The position numbers and the translations under genes are program-made. This document shows, piece by piece, positions 43,748 to 60,429 of a stretch of 64,000 bases of DNA. Under the pieces are notes generated by a model. That model had not been told where the DNA came from. It did no database searches and saw nothing but the letters and a program-made list of their open reading frames with translations. The DNA is from Escherichia coli (GTDB taxonomy: Bacteria; Pseudomonadota; Gammaproteobacteria; Enterobacterales; Enterobacteriaceae), in assembly GCF_013122565.1 (NCBI RefSeq), contig NZ_CP053258.1; one strand, written 5' to 3'. Position 1 is the stretch's first letter; every line of letters starts with the position of its first letter.

Positions 43748-44440
43748 TCAGGTCACCCGTTTTGCCCGACTTGCCTTCGTCCATTCTGGATTTGCACAGC
43801 GCGGACATAATTGTTTTTCCCCCGCGTTCATATGAATGATTTCACTACAACGAATGCAGGCATAGTCCGCCGACTCCGGCACCACTTTGTAACGCTGCGT
43901 ACAATCACTGGGTAAAATAAGTAAACCCGGTTTCACCTTGTCATCTTCAAAGAAATAGACACTGATTTGCCCGTTGGTTTCGAGAATTGCCAGACGTACT
44001 TGCCCCAACTGCTCTACACCACGCAATCGTAGCTCCATAAAGAACTCAAATTCCGTCATGTTGGAGTTATTGAGTTTCGACCAGGCCAGCTCGCCATCTT
44101 CAATAATAACAACCGGCTTGCCTTCCAGAAGATCTTCCAGTTTTTCACTGTGCGCCATCAACCACATTACCAGGCGGTATAACAACGCCAGAGTCATAAA
44201 GACGATAAGTACCGGCACCATCGGCACATCATCATAAAACGCCACATCTCCCGCCGCTGAACCCAGCGTCAGAATGATTAACACTTCAAAAAGCGACATC
44301 TGCCGCACTCCGCGTCGTCCGGTCATTTTGAGGAACAAAAAGACCAGTACAAAGGTATAAAGACTACGTAGTGCAACTTCGCCAAGGAAATCAAAAGGCA
44401 CTTTATCAAATGCCATACGGTGGAGATCGAACGCCTTCAT
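43748..44440 (-). CDS. ycaP: DUF421-family inner membrane protein YcaP
   Basis: 230-aa ORF with N-terminal TM helices and C-terminal CxxC…CxxC (CIRCSEIIH…CPRCANP). Confidence 0.85.
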   Translation of the reverse strand: MKAFDLHRMAFDKVPFDFLGEVALRSLYTFVLVFLFLKMTGRRGVRQMSLFEVLIILTLGSAAGDVAFYDDVPMVPVLIVFMTLALLYRLVMWLMAHSEKLEDLLEGKPVVIIEDGELAWSKLNNSNMTEFEFFMELRLRGVEQLGQVRLAILETNGQISVYFFEDDKVKPGLLILPSDCTQRYKVVPESADYACIRCSEIIHMNAGEKQLCPRCANPEWTKASRAKRVT

Positions 44441-44569
44441 TTTTATGCTCTTATCGTGGTTTATCCGCTAAAAGCATAGTCAACAGTTCATCGGCATGGC
44501 GGCGGTGATAGCGCCTTTGAGATAAAACCCGTATTATTGCGCGCTTTCCGTACGACTAAAGTGATTTTC

Positions 44570-46330
44570 ATGACGCAAACATTTATCCCCGGCAAAGATG
44601 CCGCTCTGGAAGATTCCATCGCTCGCTTCCAGCAAAAACTTTCAGACCTCGGCTTTCAGATTGAAGAGGCCTCCTGGCTGAATCCCGTGCCTAACGTCTG
44701 GTCTGTACATATTCGCGACAAAGAGTGCGCACTGTGTTTTACCAACGGTAAAGGCGCAACCAAAAAAGCAGCGCTGGCTTCTGCACTCGGTGAATATTTC
44801 GAGCGTCTCTCAACCAACTACTTTTTTGCTGATTTCTGGCTGGGCGAAACCATCGCCAACGGCCCGTTCGTACATTACCCCAACGAAAAATGGTTCCCTC
44901 TGACAGAAAATGACGATGTGCCAGAAGGGCTGCTCGATGACCGTCTGCGTGCTTTTTACGATCCGGAAAATGAACTGACCGGCAGCATGCTAATTGACCT
45001 GCAATCCGGTAACGAAGATCGTGGTATTTGCGGTCTGCCGTTTACACGCCAGTCTGATAATCAAACCGTTTATATTCCGATGAATATCATTGGTAACCTG
45101 TACGTTTCTAACGGTATGTCCGCTGGCAATACCCGCAACGAAGCGCGCGTTCAGGGATTATCTGAAGTTTTCGAACGCTACGTGAAAAACCGCATTATTG
45201 CTGAAAGCATCAGCCTGCCAGAGATCCCGGCAGAGGTGCTTGCGCGTTATCCAGCGGTGGTTGAAGCGATCGAAACACTGGAAGCGGAAGGTTTCCCGAT
45301 CTTCGCTTATGATGCCTCGCTTGGCGGTCAATATCCGGTGATCTGCGTGGTACTGTTCAATCCAGCTAATGGTACCTGCTTTGCATCCTTCGGTGCACAT
45401 CCTGATTTTGGCGTTGCACTGGAACGTACCGTGACCGAGTTGCTGCAAGGACGCGGTCTAAAAGATTTGGATGTGTTTACTCCGCCAACCTTCGATGATG
45501 ATGAAGTCGCTGAACATACTAACCTCGAAACGCACTTTATCGATTCCAGCGGTTTAATCTCCTGGGACCTGTTCAAGCAGGATGCCGATTATCCGTTTGT
45601 GGACTGGAGCTTCTCCGGCACCACGGAAGAAGAGTTTGCTACGCTGATGGCTATCTTCAACAAAGAAGATAAAGAAGTTTATATTGCCGATTACGAGCAT
45701 CTGGGCGTTTATGCTTGCCGCATTATCGTGCCTGGCATGTCCGATATTTATCCGGCAGAAGATCTGTGGCTGGCGAATAACAGCATGGGCAGCCATTTAC
45801 GTGAAACGATTCTTTCGCTCCCAGGCAGCGAGTGGGAAAAAGAAGATTACCTGAACCTTATCGAGCAACTGGATGAAGAAGGTTTTGATGACTTTACCCG
45901 CGTGCGTGAGCTATTGGGTCTGGCGACCGGGTCGGATAACGGTTGGTACACCCTGCGTATCGGTGAATTAAAAGCCATGCTGGCGCTGGCTGGTGGCGAT
46001 CTGGAACAGGCTCTGGTCTGGACCGAATGGACGATGGAGTTTAACTCATCAGTATTTAGTCCGGAACGCGCCAACTATTATCGCTGCCTGCAAACGTTGT
46101 TATTACTGGCGCAGGAAGAAGATCGCCAGCCGCTGCAATATTTGAATGCGTTTGTTCGCATGTACGGCGCAGATGCCGTGGAAGCCGCCAGTGCGGCAAT
46201 GAGCGGCGAAGCGGCGTTTTATGGCTTGCAACCAGTAGATAGCGATCTGCACGCGTTTGCTGCACATCAGTCGTTGTTGAAAGCCTACGAAAAGCTGCAG
46301 CGCGCCAAAGCAGCATTCTGGGCAAAATAA
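44570..46330 (+). CDS. ycaO: YcaO-domain protein (ATP-dependent; ribosomal protein S12 methylthiolation accessory factor)
   Basis: ORF 44537..46330; start at MTQTFIPGKDAALEDSIARFQQ (586 aa). Confidence 0.9.
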   Translation: MTQTFIPGKDAALEDSIARFQQKLSDLGFQIEEASWLNPVPNVWSVHIRDKECALCFTNGKGATKKAALASALGEYFERLSTNYFFADFWLGETIANGPFVHYPNEKWFPLTENDDVPEGLLDDRLRAFYDPENELTGSMLIDLQSGNEDRGICGLPFTRQSDNQTVYIPMNIIGNLYVSNGMSAGNTRNEARVQGLSEVFERYVKNRIIAESISLPEIPAEVLARYPAVVEAIETLEAEGFPIFAYDASLGGQYPVICVVLFNPANGTCFASFGAHPDFGVALERTVTELLQGRGLKDLDVFTPPTFDDDEVAEHTNLETHFIDSSGLISWDLFKQDADYPFVDWSFSGTTEEEFATLMAIFNKEDKEVYIADYEHLGVYACRIIVPGMSDIYPAEDLWLANNSMGSHLRETILSLPGSEWEKEDYLNLIEQLDEEGFDDFTRVRELLGLATGSDNGWYTLRIGELKAMLALAGGDLEQALVWTEWTMEFNSSVFSPERANYYRCLQTLLLLAQEEDRQPLQYLNAFVRMYGADAVEAASAAMSGEAAFYGLQPVDSDLHAFAAHQSLLKAYEKLQRAKAAFWAK

Positions 46331-46338
46331 AATCAAAT

Positions 46339-46357
46339 AGCCTACGCAATGTAGGCT
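46339..46357 (+). terminator. Hairpin immediately after ycaO stop (weak terminator candidate)
   Basis: AGCCTAC-gcaat-GTAGGCT; a second hairpin GGGGCAT-N7-ATGCCCC lies at 46383..46403. Confidence 0.35.
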
Positions 46358-46661
46358 TAATGATTCGTCTGAGTTATATTATGGGGCATTTTTTTAATGC
46401 CCCGCTTTACATATATTTGCATTAATAAAATAATTGTAATTATAAAGTTAAATATCGGTAATTTGTATTTAATAAATACGATCGATATTGTTACTTTATT
46501 TGCCTGATGCTCCCTTTTAATTAACTGTTTTAGCGGAGGATGCAGAAAAAATTCAACTCATTTGTTAATTTTTAAAATTTATTTTTATTTGGATAATCAA
46601 ACATTTACTCCGTATTTGCATAAAAACCATGCGAGTTACGGGCCTATAAGCCAGGCGAGAT

Positions 46662-46675
46662 ATGATCTATATCAA
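46662..46675 (+). promoter_or_regulatory. Putative FNR box upstream of focA-pflB
   Basis: aTGAT-ctat-ATCAA (13/14 match to TTGAT-N4-ATCAA) about 70 nt upstream of focA GTG, followed by -10-like TAGTAT (46698..46703). Confidence 0.4.
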
Positions 46676-46735
46676 TTTCTCATCTATAATGCTTTGTTAG
46701 TATCTCGTCGCCGACTTAATAAAGAGAGAGTTAGT

Positions 46736-47593
46736 GTGAAAGCTGACAACCCTTTTGATCTTTTACTTCCTGCTGCAATGGCCAAAGTGGCCGAAGAGGC
46801 GGGTGTCTATAAAGCAACGAAACATCCGCTTAAGACTTTCTATCTGGCGATTACTGCCGGTGTTTTCATCTCAATCGCATTCGTCTTCTATATCACAGCA
46901 ACCACTGGCACAGGCACAATGCCCTTCGGCATGGCAAAACTGGTTGGCGGCATTTGCTTCTCTCTGGGGCTGATTCTTTGTGTTGTCTGCGGAGCCGATC
47001 TCTTTACTTCCACAGTGTTGATTGTTGTTGCTAAGGCGAGTGGGCGCATCACCTGGGGTCAGTTGGCGAAAAACTGGCTAAATGTCTATTTCGGCAACCT
47101 GGTCGGCGCACTGCTGTTTGTACTTTTAATGTGGCTTTCCGGCGAGTATATGACCGCAAATGGTCAATGGGGACTAAACGTCCTACAAACCGCCGACCAC
47201 AAAGTGCACCATACTTTTATTGAGGCCGTCTGCCTTGGTATCCTGGCAAACCTGATGGTATGTCTGGCAGTATGGATGAGTTATTCTGGCCGTAGCCTGA
47301 TGGACAAAGCGTTCATTATGGTGCTGCCGGTCGCGATGTTTGTTGCCAGCGGTTTTGAGCACAGTATCGCAAACATGTTTATGATCCCGATGGGTATTGT
47401 AATCCGCGACTTCGCATCTCCGGAATTCTGGGCCGCTGTCGGTTCTGCACCGGAAAATTTTTCTCACCTGACCGTGATGAACTTCATCACTGATAACCTG
47501 ATTCCGGTTACGATCGGTAATATTATCGGCGGTGGTTTGTTGGTTGGGTTGACATACTGGGTCATTTATCTGCGTGAAAACGATCACCATTAA
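46736..47593 (+). CDS. focA: Formate channel FocA
   Basis: In-frame GTG start at 46736 giving (M)KADNPFDLLLPAAMAKVAEEAGVYKATKHP…, 285 aa; FNT family; no ATG in frame nearby. Confidence 0.9.
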   Translation: MKADNPFDLLLPAAMAKVAEEAGVYKATKHPLKTFYLAITAGVFISIAFVFYITATTGTGTMPFGMAKLVGGICFSLGLILCVVCGADLFTSTVLIVVAKASGRITWGQLAKNWLNVYFGNLVGALLFVLLMWLSGEYMTANGQWGLNVLQTADHKVHHTFIEAVCLGILANLMVCLAVWMSYSGRSLMDKAFIMVLPVAMFVASGFEHSIANMFMIPMGIVIRDFASPEFWAAVGSAPENFSHLTVMNFITDNLIPVTIGNIIGGGLLVGLTYWVIYLRENDHH

Positions 47594-47647
47594 TGGTTGT
47601 CGAAGTACGCAGTAAATAAAAAATCCACTTAAGAAGGTAGGTGTTAC

Positions 47648-49930
47648 ATGTCCGAGCTTAATGAAAAGTTAGCCACAGCCTGGGAAGGTTTTACCAAAGG
47701 TGACTGGCAGAATGAAGTAAACGTCCGTGACTTCATTCAGAAAAACTACACTCCGTACGAGGGTGACGAGTCCTTCCTGGCTGGCGCTACTGAAGCGACC
47801 ACCACCCTGTGGGACAAAGTAATGGAAGGCGTTAAACTGGAAAACCGCACTCACGCGCCAGTTGACTTTGACACCGCTGTTGCTTCCACCATCACCTCTC
47901 ACGACGCTGGCTACATCAACAAAGCGTTGGAAAAAGTTGTTGGTCTGCAGACTGAAGCTCCGCTGAAACGTGCTCTTATCCCGTTCGGTGGTATCAAAAT
48001 GATCGAAGGTTCCTGCAAAGCGTACAACCGCGAACTGGACCCGATGATCAAAAAAATCTTCACTGAATACCGTAAAACTCACAACCAGGGCGTGTTCGAC
48101 GTTTACACTCCGGACATCCTGCGTTGCCGTAAATCCGGTGTTCTGACCGGTCTGCCAGATGCTTATGGCCGTGGTCGTATCATCGGTGACTACCGTCGCG
48201 TTGCACTGTACGGTATCGACTACCTGATGAAAGACAAATACGCTCAGTTCACCTCTCTGCAGGCTGATCTGGAAAACGGCGTAAACCTGGAACAGACTAT
48301 CCGTCTGCGCGAAGAAATCGCTGAACAGCACCGCGCTCTGGGTCAGATGAAAGAAATGGCTGCGAAATACGGCTACGACATCTCTGGTCCGGCTACCAAC
48401 GCTCAGGAAGCTATCCAGTGGACTTACTTCGGCTACCTGGCTGCTGTTAAGTCTCAGAACGGTGCTGCAATGTCCTTCGGTCGTACCTCCACCTTCCTGG
48501 ATGTGTACATCGAACGTGACCTGAAAGCTGGTAAGATCACCGAACAAGAAGCGCAGGAAATGGTTGACCACCTGGTCATGAAACTGCGTATGGTTCGCTT
48601 CCTGCGTACTCCGGAATACGATGAACTGTTCTCTGGCGACCCGATCTGGGCAACCGAATCTATCGGTGGTATGGGCCTTGACGGTCGTACCCTGGTTACC
48701 AAAAACAGCTTCCGTTTCCTGAACACCCTGTACACCATGGGTCCGTCTCCGGAACCGAACATGACCATTCTGTGGTCTGAAAAACTGCCGCTGAACTTCA
48801 AGAAATTCGCCGCTAAAGTGTCCATCGACACCTCTTCTCTGCAGTATGAGAACGATGACCTGATGCGTCCGGACTTCAACAACGATGACTACGCTATCGC
48901 TTGCTGCGTAAGCCCGATGATCGTTGGTAAACAAATGCAGTTCTTCGGTGCGCGTGCAAACCTGGCGAAAACCATGCTGTACGCAATCAACGGCGGCGTT
49001 GACGAAAAACTGAAAATGCAGGTTGGTCCGAAGTCTGAGCCGATCAAAGGCGATCTCCTGAACTACGATGAAGTGATGGAGCGCATGGATCACTTCATGG
49101 ACTGGCTGGCTAAACAGTACATCACTGCACTGAACATCATCCACTACATGCACGACAAGTACAGCTACGAAGCCTCTCTGATGGCGCTGCACGACCGTGA
49201 CGTTATCCGTACCATGGCGTGTGGTATCGCTGGTCTGTCCGTTGCTGCTGACTCCCTGTCTGCAATCAAATATGCGAAAGTTAAACCGATTCGTGACGAA
49301 GACGGTCTGGCTATCGACTTCGAAATCGAAGGCGAATACCCGCAGTTTGGTAACAACGATCCGCGTGTAGATGACCTGGCTGTTGACCTGGTAGAACGTT
49401 TCATGAAGAAAATTCAGAAACTGCACACCTACCGTGACGCTATCCCGACTCAGTCTGTTCTGACCATCACGTCTAACGTTGTGTATGGTAAGAAAACTGG
49501 TAACACCCCAGACGGTCGTCGTGCTGGCGCGCCGTTCGGACCGGGTGCTAACCCGATGCACGGTCGTGACCAGAAAGGTGCTGTAGCGTCTCTGACTTCC
49601 GTTGCTAAACTGCCGTTTGCTTACGCTAAAGATGGTATCTCCTACACCTTCTCTATCGTTCCGAACGCACTGGGTAAAGACGACGAAGTTCGTAAGACCA
49701 ACCTGGCTGGTCTGATGGATGGTTACTTCCACCACGAAGCGTCCATCGAAGGTGGTCAGCACCTGAACGTTAACGTGATGAACCGTGAAATGCTGCTCGA
49801 CGCGATGGAAAACCCGGAAAAATATCCGCAGCTGACCATCCGTGTATCTGGCTACGCAGTACGTTTCAACTCGCTGACTAAAGAACAGCAGCAGGACGTT
49901 ATTACTCGTACCTTCACTCAATCTATGTAA
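47648..49930 (+). CDS. pflB: Pyruvate formate-lyase (formate C-acetyltransferase 1)
   Basis: 760-aa [27 protein letters not shown]…; C-terminal glycyl-radical motif RVSGYAV. Confidence 0.98.
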
Positions 49931-49971
49931 TTAGATTTGACTGAAATCGTACAGTAAAAAGCGTACAATAA

Positions 49972-49998
49972 AGGCTCCACGAAAGTGGGGCCTTTTTT
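49972..49998 (+). terminator. Rho-independent terminator after pflB
   Basis: AGGCTCCAC-gaaa-GTGGGGCCT hairpin followed by TTTTTT. Confidence 0.7.
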
Positions 49999-50121
49999 AG
50001 CACGAGAGCCTTTTTTGTCAGCTATCTATACTTTAAGGTGACTGCCAAAACAGACTCGACGTAGCCTTCGAGCTGCGCACCAACACGGCCTCAGATGGGC
50101 CACATCTGGAGAAACACCGCA

Positions 50122-50862
50122 ATGTCAGTTATTGGTCGCATTCACTCCTTTGAATCCTGTGGAACCGTAGACGGCCCGGGTATTCGCTTTATCACCTTTT
50201 TCCAGGGCTGCCTGATGCGCTGCCTGTATTGTCATAACCGCGACACCTGGGATACGCATGGCGGTAAAGAAGTTACCGTTGAAGATTTGATGAAGGAAGT
50301 GGTGACCTATCGCCACTTTATGAACGCTTCCGGCGGCGGCGTTACCGCATCCGGCGGTGAAGCAATCCTGCAAGCTGAGTTTGTTCGTGACTGGTTCCGC
50401 GCCTGCAAAAAAGAAGGCATTCATACCTGTCTGGACACCAACGGTTTTGTTCGTCGTTACGATCCGGTGATTGATGAACTGCTGGAAGTAACCGACCTGG
50501 TAATGCTCGATCTCAAACAAATGAACGACGAGATCCACCAAAATCTGGTTGGAGTTTCCAACCACCGCACGCTGGAGTTCGCCAAATATCTGGCGAACAA
50601 AAATGTGAAGGTGTGGATCCGCTACGTTGTTGTCCCAGGCTGGTCTGACGATGACGATTCAGCGCATCGCCTCGGTGAATTTACCCGTGATATGGGCAAC
50701 GTTGAGAAAATCGAACTCCTCCCCTACCACGAGCTGGGCAAACACAAATGGGTGGCAATGGGTGAAGAGTACAAACTCGACGGTGTTAAACCACCTAAGA
50801 AAGAGACCATGGAACGCGTGAAAGGCATTCTTGAGCAGTACGGTCATAAGGTAATGTTCTAA
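50122..50862 (+). CDS. pflA: Pyruvate formate-lyase activating enzyme (radical SAM)
   Basis: ORF 50095..50862; start at [20 protein letters not shown] (246 aa); CxxxCxxC (CLMRCLYC). Confidence 0.95.
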
Positions 50863-50871
50863 TTTCCCCGT

Positions 50872-50904
50872 AAAGCGGCAACTTTATTGAGTTGCCGCTT
50901 TTTT
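50872..50904 (+). terminator. Rho-independent terminator after pflA (in convergent gap with ycaK)
   Basis: AAAGCGGCAAC-tttattga-GTTGCCGCTTT hairpin followed by TTTT. Confidence 0.65.
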
Positions 50905-50943
50905 ATTCCGCGCTTCATTCTGCTACAGCGTTTTTAACACATT

Positions 50944-51534
50944 TTATAGTGCATCTACCATATCCCGTACCTGAGATAATAACGACTGATAATAGCTCGC
51001 ATGAAGTTCTTGCCCATCGAATACCACTGTATTACACAAGAAAGTGACATCGGCATCTTCAATACCAAGATAACTGCACATATTTATCAAATAATCGCTT
51101 ATATTTTTTTCCCAGCCCATCTGGACAAATGATTCTTTGTCTCCTCCAACCAGCGCCACCCAACGAACTTTATTGAATGGTAATTTGTGCCCATCTCCAT
51201 AAGCCAGCCCATTATTCCATACTCTGTCAATATATCCTTTTAGCATTGCCGGGAAGCTGTACCACCAGAGAGGAAAAACCACCACTAACGTGTCATGTTC
51301 AAGCAGCTCTGAATAAAGCTGATGAACCTCTGGAGAATAACGTTTATCCATATTCTTCCAGTCTGGTTCATCTTCTGGCGTCATCACCGGGTTGAAATTA
51401 CGCCGATATAAATCGAGTTCCGTCACCTGTATTTTCCGCTCCATTGCCCGCTGATGGATCGCATCAGCAATATGTGCGGTCAATGAATCATGACGAGGAT
51501 GGGCCCATACCAAATAAATACGTTCAGACTGCAT
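50944..51534 (-). CDS. ycaK: Flavodoxin-like NAD(P)H dehydrogenase (quinone)-family protein YcaK
   Basis: 196-aa ORF MQSERIYLVWAHPRHDSLTAHIADAIHQRAMERK…. Confidence 0.88.
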   Translation of the reverse strand: MQSERIYLVWAHPRHDSLTAHIADAIHQRAMERKIQVTELDLYRRNFNPVMTPEDEPDWKNMDKRYSPEVHQLYSELLEHDTLVVVFPLWWYSFPAMLKGYIDRVWNNGLAYGDGHKLPFNKVRWVALVGGDKESFVQMGWEKNISDYLINMCSYLGIEDADVTFLCNTVVFDGQELHASYYQSLLSQVRDMVDAL

Positions 51535-51583
51535 AATTTTACCTCCACGTTAAGTTCTGGAGCGCACTTTACGCAGGCGGCAT

Positions 51584-51604
51584 AATCATGTAAACGTGAT
51601 GATT
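51584..51604. promoter_or_regulatory. Interrupted dyad in ycaK-ycaN divergent promoter region (candidate LysR-type operator)
   Basis: AATCAT-gtaaacgtg-ATGATT (6-N9-6 perfect inverted repeat) 30 nt upstream of ycaN start and 50 nt upstream of ycaK start. Confidence 0.3.
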
Positions 51605-51633
51605 CAGGATGAGTTAATGAAGGATTTTCACTA

Positions 51634-52542
51634 ATGCGGATGAATATGTCTGACTTTGCCACTTTCTTTGCTGTGGCCCGTAATCAAAGCTTTCGTGCAG
51701 CGGGCGATGAGTTAGGCTTATCCTCGTCCGCCATTAGCCATAGTATTAAAACACTGGAACAACGTCTTAAAATTCGCTTATTCAATCGGACAACCCGAAG
51801 CGTATCGTTAACGGAAGCGGGTTCTAATCTCTATGAACGATTGCGCCCAGCTTTCGACGAAATTCAGATCATGTTAGATGAAATGAATGATTTTCGTCTG
51901 ACACCGACAGGAACGCTCAAAATCAATGCCGCCCGGATAGCTGCACGTATATTTTTAATGCCTTTACTGGTTGGTTTCACACGTGAATATCCTGATATTA
52001 AAGTCGAGCTCACAACTGACGACTCTCTTATCGATATCGTCCAGCAGGGCTTTGACGCTGGCGTTCGACTTAGTGGCATCGTCGAAAAAGATATGATCAG
52101 CGTGGCGATCGGCCCGCCAGTGAAATTATGTGTAGCAGCAACGCCAGAGTACTTTACAAGATATGGCAAACCCCGCCATCCTCATGATCTGCTTAATCAT
52201 CAATGTGTTGTTTTTCGTTATCCCAGCGGTAAACCTTTCCACTGGCAATTTGCAAAGGATCTGGAAATTGCTGTCGCAGGGAATATCATTCTGGATGATG
52301 TTGATGCTGAACTGGATGCCGTTTTGATGGGGGCTGGTATCGGGTATCTGCTCTATGAACAGATCAAGGAGTACCTTGATACCGGTCGTTTAGAATGTGT
52401 ACTGGAAGACTGGATCACAGAGCGTCCAGGCTTCCAGGTCTATTACCCAAACCGCCAGTATATGTCCTGCGGCTTGCGCGCATTTCTCGATTATGTAAAA
52501 ACGGGCCAGATCTGCCAGAGTCAGCGTCACCGACCACAATAA
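51634..52542 (+). CDS. ycaN: LysR-family transcriptional regulator YcaN
   Basis: 302-aa ORF with N-terminal HTH (FRAAGDELGLSSSAISHSIKTLEQRLKIRLFNRTTRSVSLTEAG); divergent from ycaK. Confidence 0.9.
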   Translation: MRMNMSDFATFFAVARNQSFRAAGDELGLSSSAISHSIKTLEQRLKIRLFNRTTRSVSLTEAGSNLYERLRPAFDEIQIMLDEMNDFRLTPTGTLKINAARIAARIFLMPLLVGFTREYPDIKVELTTDDSLIDIVQQGFDAGVRLSGIVEKDMISVAIGPPVKLCVAATPEYFTRYGKPRHPHDLLNHQCVVFRYPSGKPFHWQFAKDLEIAVAGNIILDDVDAELDAVLMGAGIGYLLYEQIKEYLDTGRLECVLEDWITERPGFQVYYPNRQYMSCGLRAFLDYVKTGQICQSQRHRPQ

Positions 52543-55331: not shown

Positions 55332-55645
55332 GAATTAAAACCGTGAGGAAGTTCAAATTTCATGCGCATCATGCCACCGCCAAAAACATTGTCAATGGGT
55401 GAAAATACGCGCATATCGCAGCGGCGGTATTATCGATTTATATTACTCATTCATAACGCTAATGCTGAAGAGATGATTAGTCTCATCTGATTGTTTTTAT
55501 TGATCTAACACAAATTTCATACGCTTCGTTCAGTCGAAAAATTTCATGGTCACAGCAAACTCATATTTCCCGTCTATGCTTTCAGAGCAATGCATCGCGT
55601 CTGACCGATTTCAGACGTACCACTGACTCTCGAAAGGAGAAGAGG

Positions 55646-60415: not shown

Positions 60416-60429
60416 TTGTTCGGTATCAA
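60416..60429 (-). promoter_or_regulatory. FNR box of the dmsABC promoter
   Basis: On dmsA strand reads TTGAT-accg-AACAA (TTGAT-N4-ATCAA family), about 175 nt upstream of dmsA ATG. Confidence 0.5.

Follow-up and report, generated by a model that had tools for sequence, protein, structure and literature searches.

The 64,000-nt stretch of Escherichia coli DNA analysed in this study, hereafter called the window, harbours the genes ycaO, focA, pflB and pflA in the same orientation, all without internal stops and coding for four intact proteins (Table 1). Each product scores above the cut-off of its NCBIfam equivalog model (YcaO_for_S12, FocA, PflB and PflA, respectively), and the genes are separated by intergenic gaps of 405 bp (ycaO-focA), 54 bp (focA-pflB) and 191 bp (pflB-pflA). 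In K-12 (ycaO b0905, focA-pflB b0904-b0903, pflA b0902), order, orientation and the 405-bp gap are all as in the window. The position of ycaO directly upstream of focA-pflB-pflA, put forward in the initial annotation, is therefore borne out by the protein models and the K-12 gene order, and the gap proposed there (46331..46735) equally holds. The comparison with K-12 extends over 11.2 kb with 97.97% identity and zero gaps, while the proteins show 0-4 residue differences. At least 80% of the region is present in 5416 of 5426 complete E. coli genomes, and the strain is about 2% diverged from each complete E. coli genome searched. With a probability of about 95%, the locus represents the enterobacterial ycaO / focA-pflB / pflA block and functions as described for K-12.

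Table 1 Features of the ycaO-focA-pflB-pflA region in window coordinates
Feature	Position	Strand	Remarks
ycaO (586 aa)	44570..46330	+	S12 methylthiotransferase accessory factor; NCBIfam NF040716, 917 bits
Hairpin 1	46331..46365	+	abuts ycaO stop codon; dG -13.4 kcal/mol, z -5.3; inverted repeat I1
Hairpin 2	46383..46403	+	GGGGCATT-TTTTT-AATGCCCC; dG -14.1 kcal/mol, z -3.6
ArcA site, four direct repeats	46423..46476		upstream part of pfl regulatory region
uRBS Shine-Dalgarno GGAGG	46535..46539	+	30S 'standby' site of long focA leader
IHF-type core AATCAAACATTTA (WATCAANNNNTTR)	46595..46607	+	A/T-rich tract 5' of core; putative
FNR box ATGATctatATCAA	46662-46675		class II site of promoter P6; K-12-identical
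TATAAT hexamer	46685..46690	+	between FNR box and P6 -10; invariant in alignment
P6 extended -10 TGtTAGTAT	46695..46703	+	invariant across genera; inferred start ~46709-46710
Weak Shine-Dalgarno AGAGAGAG	46723..46730	+	5 nt 5' of GTG; GAGAGAGTTAGTGTG invariant 77/77
focA (285 aa)	46736..47593	+	formate channel, GTG start; NCBIfam NF008069, 633 bits
pflB (760 aa)	47648..49930	+	pyruvate formate-lyase glycyl-radical enzyme; TIGR01255, 1458 bits
pflB intrinsic terminator	49970..49998	+	stem 49970-49995, UUUUUU; dG -18.5 kcal/mol, z -5.2
pflA (246 aa)	50122..50862	+	radical-SAM activating enzyme for PflB; NF008356, 525 bits
pflA hairpin terminator	50872..50901		13-bp stem, then T-run; dG -20.3 kcal/mol, z -6.1

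An FNR-like sequence aTGAT-N4-ATCAA had been noticed in the ycaO-focA gap, and this 14-bp inverted repeat (ATGATCTATATCAA) has one mismatch to TTGAT-N4-ATCAA. As the gap is A/T-rich and the left half reads ATGAT instead of TTGAT, a chance match or a CRP site might be considered, all the more as window-wide the plain consensus with up to two mismatches gives 48 matches versus 34.5 expected, a just mild and not significant excess. Such an interpretation is, however, hardly conceivable in view of the score, the conservation and the occupancy of the site. A matrix derived from 62 ChIP-bound sites, the focA site left out, gives the box 16.65 bits, the highest score anywhere in the 64 kb; when the gap was shuffled 5000 times with its dinucleotides preserved, only 9 shuffles attained this value. 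Throughout a sample of 77 Enterobacteriaceae sequences the ATGAT half-site is found without exception and ATCAA in 74, the other three carrying the allowed variant GTCAA, while seven of the eight box variants differ in the N4 spacer and the distance from box centre to GTG is fixed at 67.5-69.5 nt. Selective constraint thus acts on the half-sites and leaves the spacer free, as a class II FNR site would predict. Furthermore, the right half TCAA corresponds to the TTGA of FNR sites and not to the GTGA of CRP sites. The identical K-12 site (TTGATATAGATCAT, at 953750) is located at the focA-pflB FNR ChIP-seq peak (953,741; category directly activated), with the top site at -40.5 and direct activation listed (Myers 2013, Tables S6 and 1), so that the recognition of an FNR-like element in the gap has been well founded. 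The aerobic/anaerobic expression ratios in K-12 are 0.145 for focA, 0.21 for pflB and 0.34 for pflA, and a 0.35-kb fragment with the same FNR box is in use as a portable anaerobic promoter.

Additional FNR sites had been expected inside focA, where they would drive internal pflB promoters. The matrix scan of 46331-47647 identified the P6 box as the sole score above 5 bits, and the best focA-internal matches, with 4.0-4.7 bits and window ranks 69-96, are as frequent as background matches (1.5 per kb). Early S1 mapping reportedly located several 5' ends within focA, which would speak for internal promoters, as would the pflB 5' ends at -371 and -35 given in the table of transcription start sites. 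In addition, two FNR sites have been counted under the K-12 peak at a permissive threshold (Myers 2013, Table 1). On the other hand, the focA-internal ends are attributed to multiple processed transcripts with differential decay in Sawers 2006, in the form in which that work is cited. Weighed against the background-level scores and this processing, FNR-dependent promoters within focA seem very improbable, and the expectation has not been sustained. Equally, neither the promoter P7 nor a weaker second FNR site could be placed by the matrix scan of the gap, where the next-best score is 3.1 bits. Candidates for P7 are a start near 46505-46511, just 3' of the ArcA repeats, or the published focA 5' end at -348, which corresponds to window position 46388 at the ycaO terminator hairpin. 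A sigma70 ChIP peak at about 46393 lies inside or adjoining the same hairpin, and neither this peak nor the -348 end could be fitted into the classical promoter scheme.

The gap as a whole differs from K-12 by 7 substitutions in 405 bp (98.3% identity), with the FNR box, the TATAAT hexamer, the extended -10, the Shine-Dalgarno sequence and the GTG being identical. Four of the differences fall at 46446 (ArcA repeat 2), 46544 (next to the upstream Shine-Dalgarno sequence), 46602 (spacer of the IHF core) and 46388, where the substitution strengthens the terminator stem in the window. The pfl region of K-12 also contains the GGAGG 30S site and the ArcA site with its four repeats (953949-954002 in U00096.2, ChIP peak focA2; Park 2013, Tables S2-S4), of which the published 54-nt sequence is found in the window except for a single A in place of G at 46446. 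The GGAGG motif belongs to an upstream 30S site (uRBS) with a strong Shine-Dalgarno sequence and a 5' end at -213 of focA (window 46523), described in a 30S-seq preprint as having no functional start codon, and mutation of which lowers focA-lacZ expression approximately 10-fold. A GGAG motif near -200 occurs in about 46 of 77 species. An upstream open reading frame at GGAGG was considered and rejected, as its ATG at 46540 abuts the Shine-Dalgarno sequence with zero spacing and is absent in other genera. Further downstream, a match to the IHF consensus at -141 from the GTG is present in 56 of 77 species, and the changes fall chiefly in the NNNN positions. IHF presumably binds this core, as the literature describes.

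The TATAAT hexamer, located 3' of the FNR box and 5' of the -10 of P6, is a candidate -10 of an overlapping FNR-independent promoter; relative to the start of that promoter, FNR would sit at about -28.5. The promoter may correspond to the 'P6A' of Kaiser & Sawers 1997. The start of P6 itself can be estimated by adding 40.5 or 41.5 to the box centre at 46668.5, leading to 46709 or 46710, which the spacing of the extended -10 fits; the exact base is a prediction from this geometry and the published -40.5. A sigma70 ChIP peak at 953695 (U00096.2) corresponds to window position ~46730. A sigma70 scan of the region returned one site, TTTACA-17-AATAAT at 46406-46434, which was set aside as evidence because the count is below chance (1 versus 3.0 expected). 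Folding of the P6 leader gave no structure that masks the Shine-Dalgarno sequence or the GTG (z = 0.0). Taken together, approximately 80 nt spanning the core of P6 and the region of GUG initiation are almost invariant among the 77 sequences from Enterobacteriaceae, in keeping with the multilayered control described in the literature.

Initiation of focA at the GTG at 46736 had also been proposed, together with the statement that no in-frame ATG is nearby. The start codon is substantiated by its presence in 76 of 76 related species, by a codon-position signature and by the preprint, which states a GUG start. The second statement is correct for the upstream side, as no in-frame ATG occurs between the nearest in-frame stop (TGA 46505) and the GTG, and it is inexact downstream because codon 15 is an in-frame ATG (46778-46780), 42 nt 3' of the GTG. 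As the first in-frame ATG, this codon could be regarded as the true start, with the GTG a mere convention of annotation, a notion for which there is next to no room in view of the pattern of variation. In codons 2-15 the third positions hold 194 of the 242 minor alleles, with this variation beginning right after the GTG, whereas in the 42 nt 5' of it the minor alleles are distributed flatly by position (123/113/130). The residues before Met15 (KADNPFDLLLPAA) are conserved as protein. Moreover, the GTG and the Shine-Dalgarno-like AGAGAG are invariant in 76-77 species, while the 20 nt 5' of ATG 46778 (ATCTTTTACTTCCTGCTGCA) are without such a motif. The toeprint of the 30S subunit in the start region requires tRNAi and SD_TIR, and mutation of SD_TIR abolishes focA-lacZ expression (30S-seq preprint). 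At the protein level, K-12 annotation and PDB entries have an identical 285-aa extent, NF008069 spans FocA residues 1-285 and the crystal structure 3KCU aligns over 1-285 with one difference (T233A). [quoted passage not shown] FocA thus begins at the GTG, and with the pore residues Thr91 and His209 present the protein belongs to the formate/nitrite transporter family.

The two hairpins predicted 3' of ycaO were recovered by folding (dG and z) and as inverted repeats. Hairpin 1 is poorly conserved and variable between genera, and hairpin 2 is read as the conserved intrinsic terminator of ycaO. In most other genera of the Enterobacteriaceae the stem of the latter is kept as GGGGCAAT..ATTGCCCC and followed by 5-7 T, whereas the tail in the window and in K-12 and other E. 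coli is a degraded T-run (GCTTTACAT), with which the plus-strand terminator scan made no call despite the good dG of the stem. The sole Rfam match over both hairpins, DapZ, was discarded as sub-threshold (24.8 versus 56 bits, E 0.56) and is taken as chance or generic terminator likeness.

The immediate neighbourhood of ycaO and the anaerobic genes, stressed in the initial annotation, might indicate coupling by read-through or shared regulation, in which case YcaO would serve the glycyl-radical system. The genes share orientation, and ycaO is located directly 5' of focA in every one of the 76 Enterobacteriaceae loci whose upstream DNA is long enough, with a steady gap length of 382-407 bp. The order recurs in Pantoea eucrina and a second contig of that group, and the T-run after the E. 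coli hairpin is weak. However, the serC-ycaO-focA-pflB-pflA neighbourhood is syntenic as a whole, and the adjacency of ycaO and focA is therefore unspecific to these genes. In K-12, ycaO is 3.8-fold higher aerobically and focA about 7-fold higher anaerobically, so that the two respond to oxygen in opposite directions; furthermore, the terminator hairpin 3' of ycaO is conserved, YcaO orthologues with 67% and 53% identity occur in unrelated contexts without focA or pflB, and the equivalog name designates an accessory factor of S12 methylthiotransferase. Opposite oxygen response, a probable terminator of its own and loss of adjacency in distant orthologues make a functional link highly doubtful, and it was not upheld. 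A narrower variant can be considered, namely a physical coupling between the 3' end of ycaO and the most distal upstream portion of the pfl regulatory region. The -348 end and the sigma70 peak at the terminator, the lost U-run in E. coli and the constant spacer point to a possible effect of ycaO on pfl, for which we see a slim chance. If it were true, transcription or termination of ycaO could modulate aerobic, long-leader expression of focA-pflB by read-through or promoter occlusion, which would add to the opposite behaviour of the two units towards oxygen.

The enzymes encoded downstream possess the hallmarks of a glycyl-radical enzyme and its activase. PflB contains the RVSGY motif at 732-736 with Gly735 as well as Cys419-Cys420, and PflA, identical to the K-12 protein, has the CX3CX2C radical-SAM motif as CLMRCLYC at residues 30-37. 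The terminator 3' of pflA is common to pflA and the convergent ycaK.

From these components, a scheme for expression can be proposed, in which the gap represents the focA-pflB ('pfl') promoter-regulatory region with, from 5' to 3', the ArcA repeats, the 30S Shine-Dalgarno site, the IHF-type core and the class II FNR site. Without oxygen, a [4Fe-4S] FNR dimer would bind ATGAT-N4-ATCAA approximately 40.5-41.5 bp 5' of the P6 start and recruit sigma70 RNA polymerase, giving rise to a focA-pflB transcript predicted to end at the terminator 3' of pflB. Translation of focA would proceed from GUG 46736 with the weak AGAGAG Shine-Dalgarno sequence 5' of it, and ycaO would constitute its own transcription unit, ended by hairpin 2. 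Directly observed are the identities of the genes, the sequence identity of the elements with those of K-12, the score of the matrix, the footprints across species and the coding signature from the GTG. The literature on K-12 adds occupancy by FNR and ArcA, induction that is anaerobic and depends on FNR, binding of 30S subunits and the start of focA at GUG, a behaviour that would carry over to the present diverged strain. Every element flagged by the initial annotation has already been characterised in E. coli K-12, and the locus is ordinary. While it serves as a model for the study of anaerobic gene regulation and glycyl-radical enzymology, its value as a discovery is small, and the yield consists of a clean annotation and three negatives concerning focA-internal FNR sites, a functional link between ycaO and pfl, and an alternative focA start.

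Compared with known systems, class II FNR promoters such as those of narG, nirB, dmsA and yfiD/grcA likewise carry a TTGAT-N4-ATCAA-type repeat, centred near -41.5 as predicted for the focA box, and the score of the focA box exceeds the median of the 62 ChIP-bound sites (15.2 bits). Unlike in these class II sites the left half-site starts with A, and unlike in promoters of the narG/nirB/dmsA/grcA type a TATAAT hexamer is placed between box and -10. As ArcA and IHF elements are found upstream, the promoter is composite rather than simple. The FNR site of dmsA is located in the same window, at 60416-60429.

RimO-dependent methylthiolation of S12 Asp88 in K-12 requires YcaO. Within the YcaO superfamily (PF02624; E. 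coli YcaO, structures 4Q84-4Q86) the window protein is full length, matching 4Q84 over its entire extent and carrying both the YcaO and YcaO_C domains, as do its close homologues (PF02624 and PF18381), and of the 74 nucleotide differences of ycaO to K-12 only four amino-acid differences result. The score to NF040716 lies well above the cut-off of 700 bits, in contrast to the azoline-forming SagD model (46.5 versus 219) and the McrA-thioamidation model (40.2 versus 365), both below cut-off. The YcaO encoded here is thus a member of the non-RiPP 'S12 accessory' subfamily, unlike the azoline and thioamidation members of the superfamily.

The four genes, called by ORF listing and translation, are all intact, with ycaO directly upstream of focA-pflB-pflA, as the initial annotation had placed it, all on the + strand and with intergenic spacings of 405, 54 and 191 bp in the order ycaO-focA, focA-pflB and pflB-pflA. 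Each product scores well over the cut-off of an NCBIfam equivalog model (YcaO_for_S12, 917 bits; FocA, 633 bits; PflB, 1458 bits; PflA, 525 bits), FocA and YcaO match PDB 3KCU (one substitution) and 4Q84 over their full length, and catalytic motifs were found in PflB (RVSGY with Gly735; Cys419-Cys420), PflA (CX3CX2C) and FocA (Thr91 and His209). PflB differs from K-12 by Q93A, I97V, L198Y and V470L, two of which need multi-base codon changes, unusual in an enzyme so conserved. A stop-free antisense ORF of 750 aa covering almost the whole of pflB (minus strand, 47669-49921) was rejected as a gene, being the usual artefact of the strong codon bias of a highly expressed gene.

Coordinates of genes and regulatory features at the ycaO-focA-pflB-pflA locus
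Feature	Position	Strand	Details
ycaO	44570-46330	+	586 aa, ATG start, intact
Hairpin 1	46331-46365		dG −13.4 kcal/mol, z −5.3
Hairpin 2	46383-46403		dG −14.1 kcal/mol, z −3.6
ArcA site	46423-46476		four direct repeats; Park et al., 2013, under ChIP peak focA2
GGAGG	46535-46539		upstream 30S binding site of the 30S-seq preprint
IHF-type core AATCAAACATTTA	46595-46607		sequence match
FNR box	46662-46675
TATAAT	46685-46690		conserved
Extended −10	46695-46703		TGtTAGTAT
AGAGAGAG	46723-46730		followed by GTG at 46736
focA	46736-47593	+	285 aa, GTG start, intact
pflB	47648-49930	+	760 aa, intact
Terminator 3' of pflB	stem 49970-49995, T-run to 49998		strong; dG −18.5 kcal/mol, z −5.2
pflA	50122-50862	+	246 aa, intact
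Terminator 3' of pflA	50872-50901		dG −20.3 kcal/mol

Consensus matches to FNR with at most two mismatches are unimpressive in the 64-kb window (48 observed, 34.5 expected), and therefore a weight matrix with symmetric weights was built from 62 sites at ChIP-seq peaks, omitting the focA site (Myers et al., 2013, Table S6). With this matrix, the FNR-type box proposed for the 405-bp gap between ycaO and focA ranks first in the window at 16.65 bits, above the training-site median of 15.2. When the A/T-rich gap was shuffled 5000 times with dinucleotides preserved, only 9 shuffles got as high. All 77 Enterobacteriaceae sequences (76 related species and the window) carry the left half-site ATGAT; on the right, 74 have ATCAA and 3 have GTCAA, a permitted variant. 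The box occurs in eight sequence variants, seven of which differ in the 4-bp spacer, and the distance from box centre to GTG stays at 67.5-69.5 nt. Constrained half-sites around a free spacer are the signature of a protein-binding palindrome. In the same 77 sequences the ~80-100 nt from the box to the first focA codons (46661-46760) are near-invariant, with conservation far above the remainder of the gap. The second-best score in the window, 14.1 bits, belongs to TTGATCTAACACAA (55500-55513), which by coordinate conversion falls into the ycaC/ycaD region and is absent from the K-12 FNR ChIP peaks consulted; by the same conversion, TTGTTCGGTATCAA (60416-60429, 10.6 bits) corresponds to the FNR site already known at dmsA (Myers peak 939992/940035).

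Function has been published for the identical K-12 sequence, whose coordinates were converted as window = 1001202 − x (NC_000913.3; U00096.2 + 777 = NC_000913.3) and the conversion validated with the published 54-nt ArcA site sequence. [quoted passage not shown] TTGATATAGATCAT, the reverse complement of the box, stands at an FNR peak (Table S6), and aerobic/anaerobic ratios are 0.145 for focA, 0.21 for pflB and 0.34 for pflA (Table S12). FNR control of promoter 6 (P6) of the focA-pflB regulatory region is credited to Reyes-Ramirez and Sawers (2006) by Trotter et al. (2011), and a 0.35-kb fragment with the box is used as a portable anaerobic promoter in metabolic engineering. From the box centre at 46668.5, a distance of 40.5-41.5 leads to a predicted start at 46709/46710 with the extended −10 suitably spaced, a geometry that fits a class II promoter. 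The TATAAT, from whose own start FNR would sit near −28.5, presumably corresponds to the overlapping promoter P6A of Kaiser and Sawers from 1997.

The expectation of additional FNR sites inside focA did not hold, as the matrix scan of 46331-47647 found none: the best scores beyond the P6 box are 4.0-4.7 bits and take ranks 69-96 of the window, where sites of ≥4 bits have a background density of 1.5 per kb. The many 5' ends mapped inside focA are described, as quoted in a citing paper, as 'multiple processed transcripts' that undergo differential decay (Sawers, 2006). Two FNR sites have been listed under the focA-pflB peak at a permissive threshold (Myers et al., 2013); the second was not found by the matrix, the next-best score in the gap being 3.1 bits.

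Initiation of focA at GTG 46736, as initially annotated, is well founded. The aligned start is GTG in 76/76 species and GAGAGAGTTAGTGTG is invariant in the cross-species alignment. The coding signature starts at this GTG, because third positions take 194 of the 242 minor alleles in codons 2-15 while the 42 nt upstream are flat by position (123/113/130). The peptide ahead of Met15 is kept as KADNPFDLLLPAA with conservative variants only. The assertion that no in-frame ATG is nearby is correct upstream, where the frame stays open as far as TGA 46505 and contains no ATG, but not downstream, where the first one is codon 15 (46778). The GUG start is said to have been established by mutagenesis by Suppmann and Sawers in 1994. 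It is stated in a 30S-seq preprint, and the FocA N-terminal helix has been reported to contact PflB. The preprint also describes the upstream 30S site, whose 5' boundary is −213 (window 46523) and whose mutation lowers focA-lacZ ~10-fold. The IHF-type core occurs at −141 in 56/77 species, with changes mostly at NNNN positions.

Both hairpins noticed after ycaO are present with negative z scores. The sequence of hairpin 1 is not conserved between genera. Hairpin 2 recurs in other Enterobacteriaceae as GGGGCAAT..ATTGCCCC followed by a T run, which argues for a predicted intrinsic terminator of ycaO; the T-run is degraded in E. coli and the window. A sub-threshold Rfam DapZ match over both hairpins (46336-46412; 24.8 bits, gathering score 56, E 0.56) is probably generic hairpin or terminator similarity. 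A published focA 5' end at −348 (K-12 954814; 5'UTR of 348 nt) converts to window 46388 and a sigma70 ChIP peak to ~46393, inside or beside hairpin 2. At 46388 the window has A for G of K-12, leaving the stem fully paired. As end and peak fall at the terminator, there is a small residual possibility that ycaO termination is coupled with long-leader focA transcription. For promoter P7, a start near 46505-46511 would suit the ArcA repeats better than 46388, and the −348 end is not read as a sign of novelty.

Whether ycaO belongs functionally with the pfl genes can be judged from its neighbourhood. Besides the common orientation, ycaO is immediately 5' of focA in 76/76 Enterobacteriaceae loci with enough upstream DNA, at a constant 382-407 bp, and the order extends to Pantoea eucrina and a second contig of its group. 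However, the entire serC-ycaO-focA-pflB-pflA block is syntenic in the latter genomes, which makes the adjacency unspecific to ycaO and the pfl genes, and a conserved predicted terminator separates the ycaO and focA units. Moreover, in K-12 ycaO is 3.8-fold up aerobically whereas focA-pflB-pflA is induced anaerobically, and YcaO orthologues sharing 67% and 53% identity reside in unrelated contexts with neither focA nor pflB nearby. On these four grounds the juxtaposition is best read as lineage-specific synteny, not as a functional module.

The locus is plainly that of E. coli: of 5426 complete E. coli genomes, 5416 contain 80% or more of the 6.6-kb stretch. Since none of these genomes is more than ~98.5% identical (44400-51000 and window 1-25000), the source strain lies slightly outside sampled E. 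coli diversity, possibly in a cryptic Escherichia clade or a Shigella-like lineage. The genome named 'E. coli SCPM-O-B-8794' (L002 9238) shares 94% identity with the window and is without the ycaK-ycaN segment (window 50960-52439) that window and K-12 have. Compared with K-12 MG1655, gene set, order, orientation and the 405-bp gap are the same; identity is 97.97% over 11.2 kb ungapped, and none of the seven substitutions in the aligned gap and flanks touches the FNR box, −10 elements, Shine-Dalgarno or GTG. The initial observation is thus confirmed and its interpretation essentially right, and everything at this locus has already been described in E. coli K-12.
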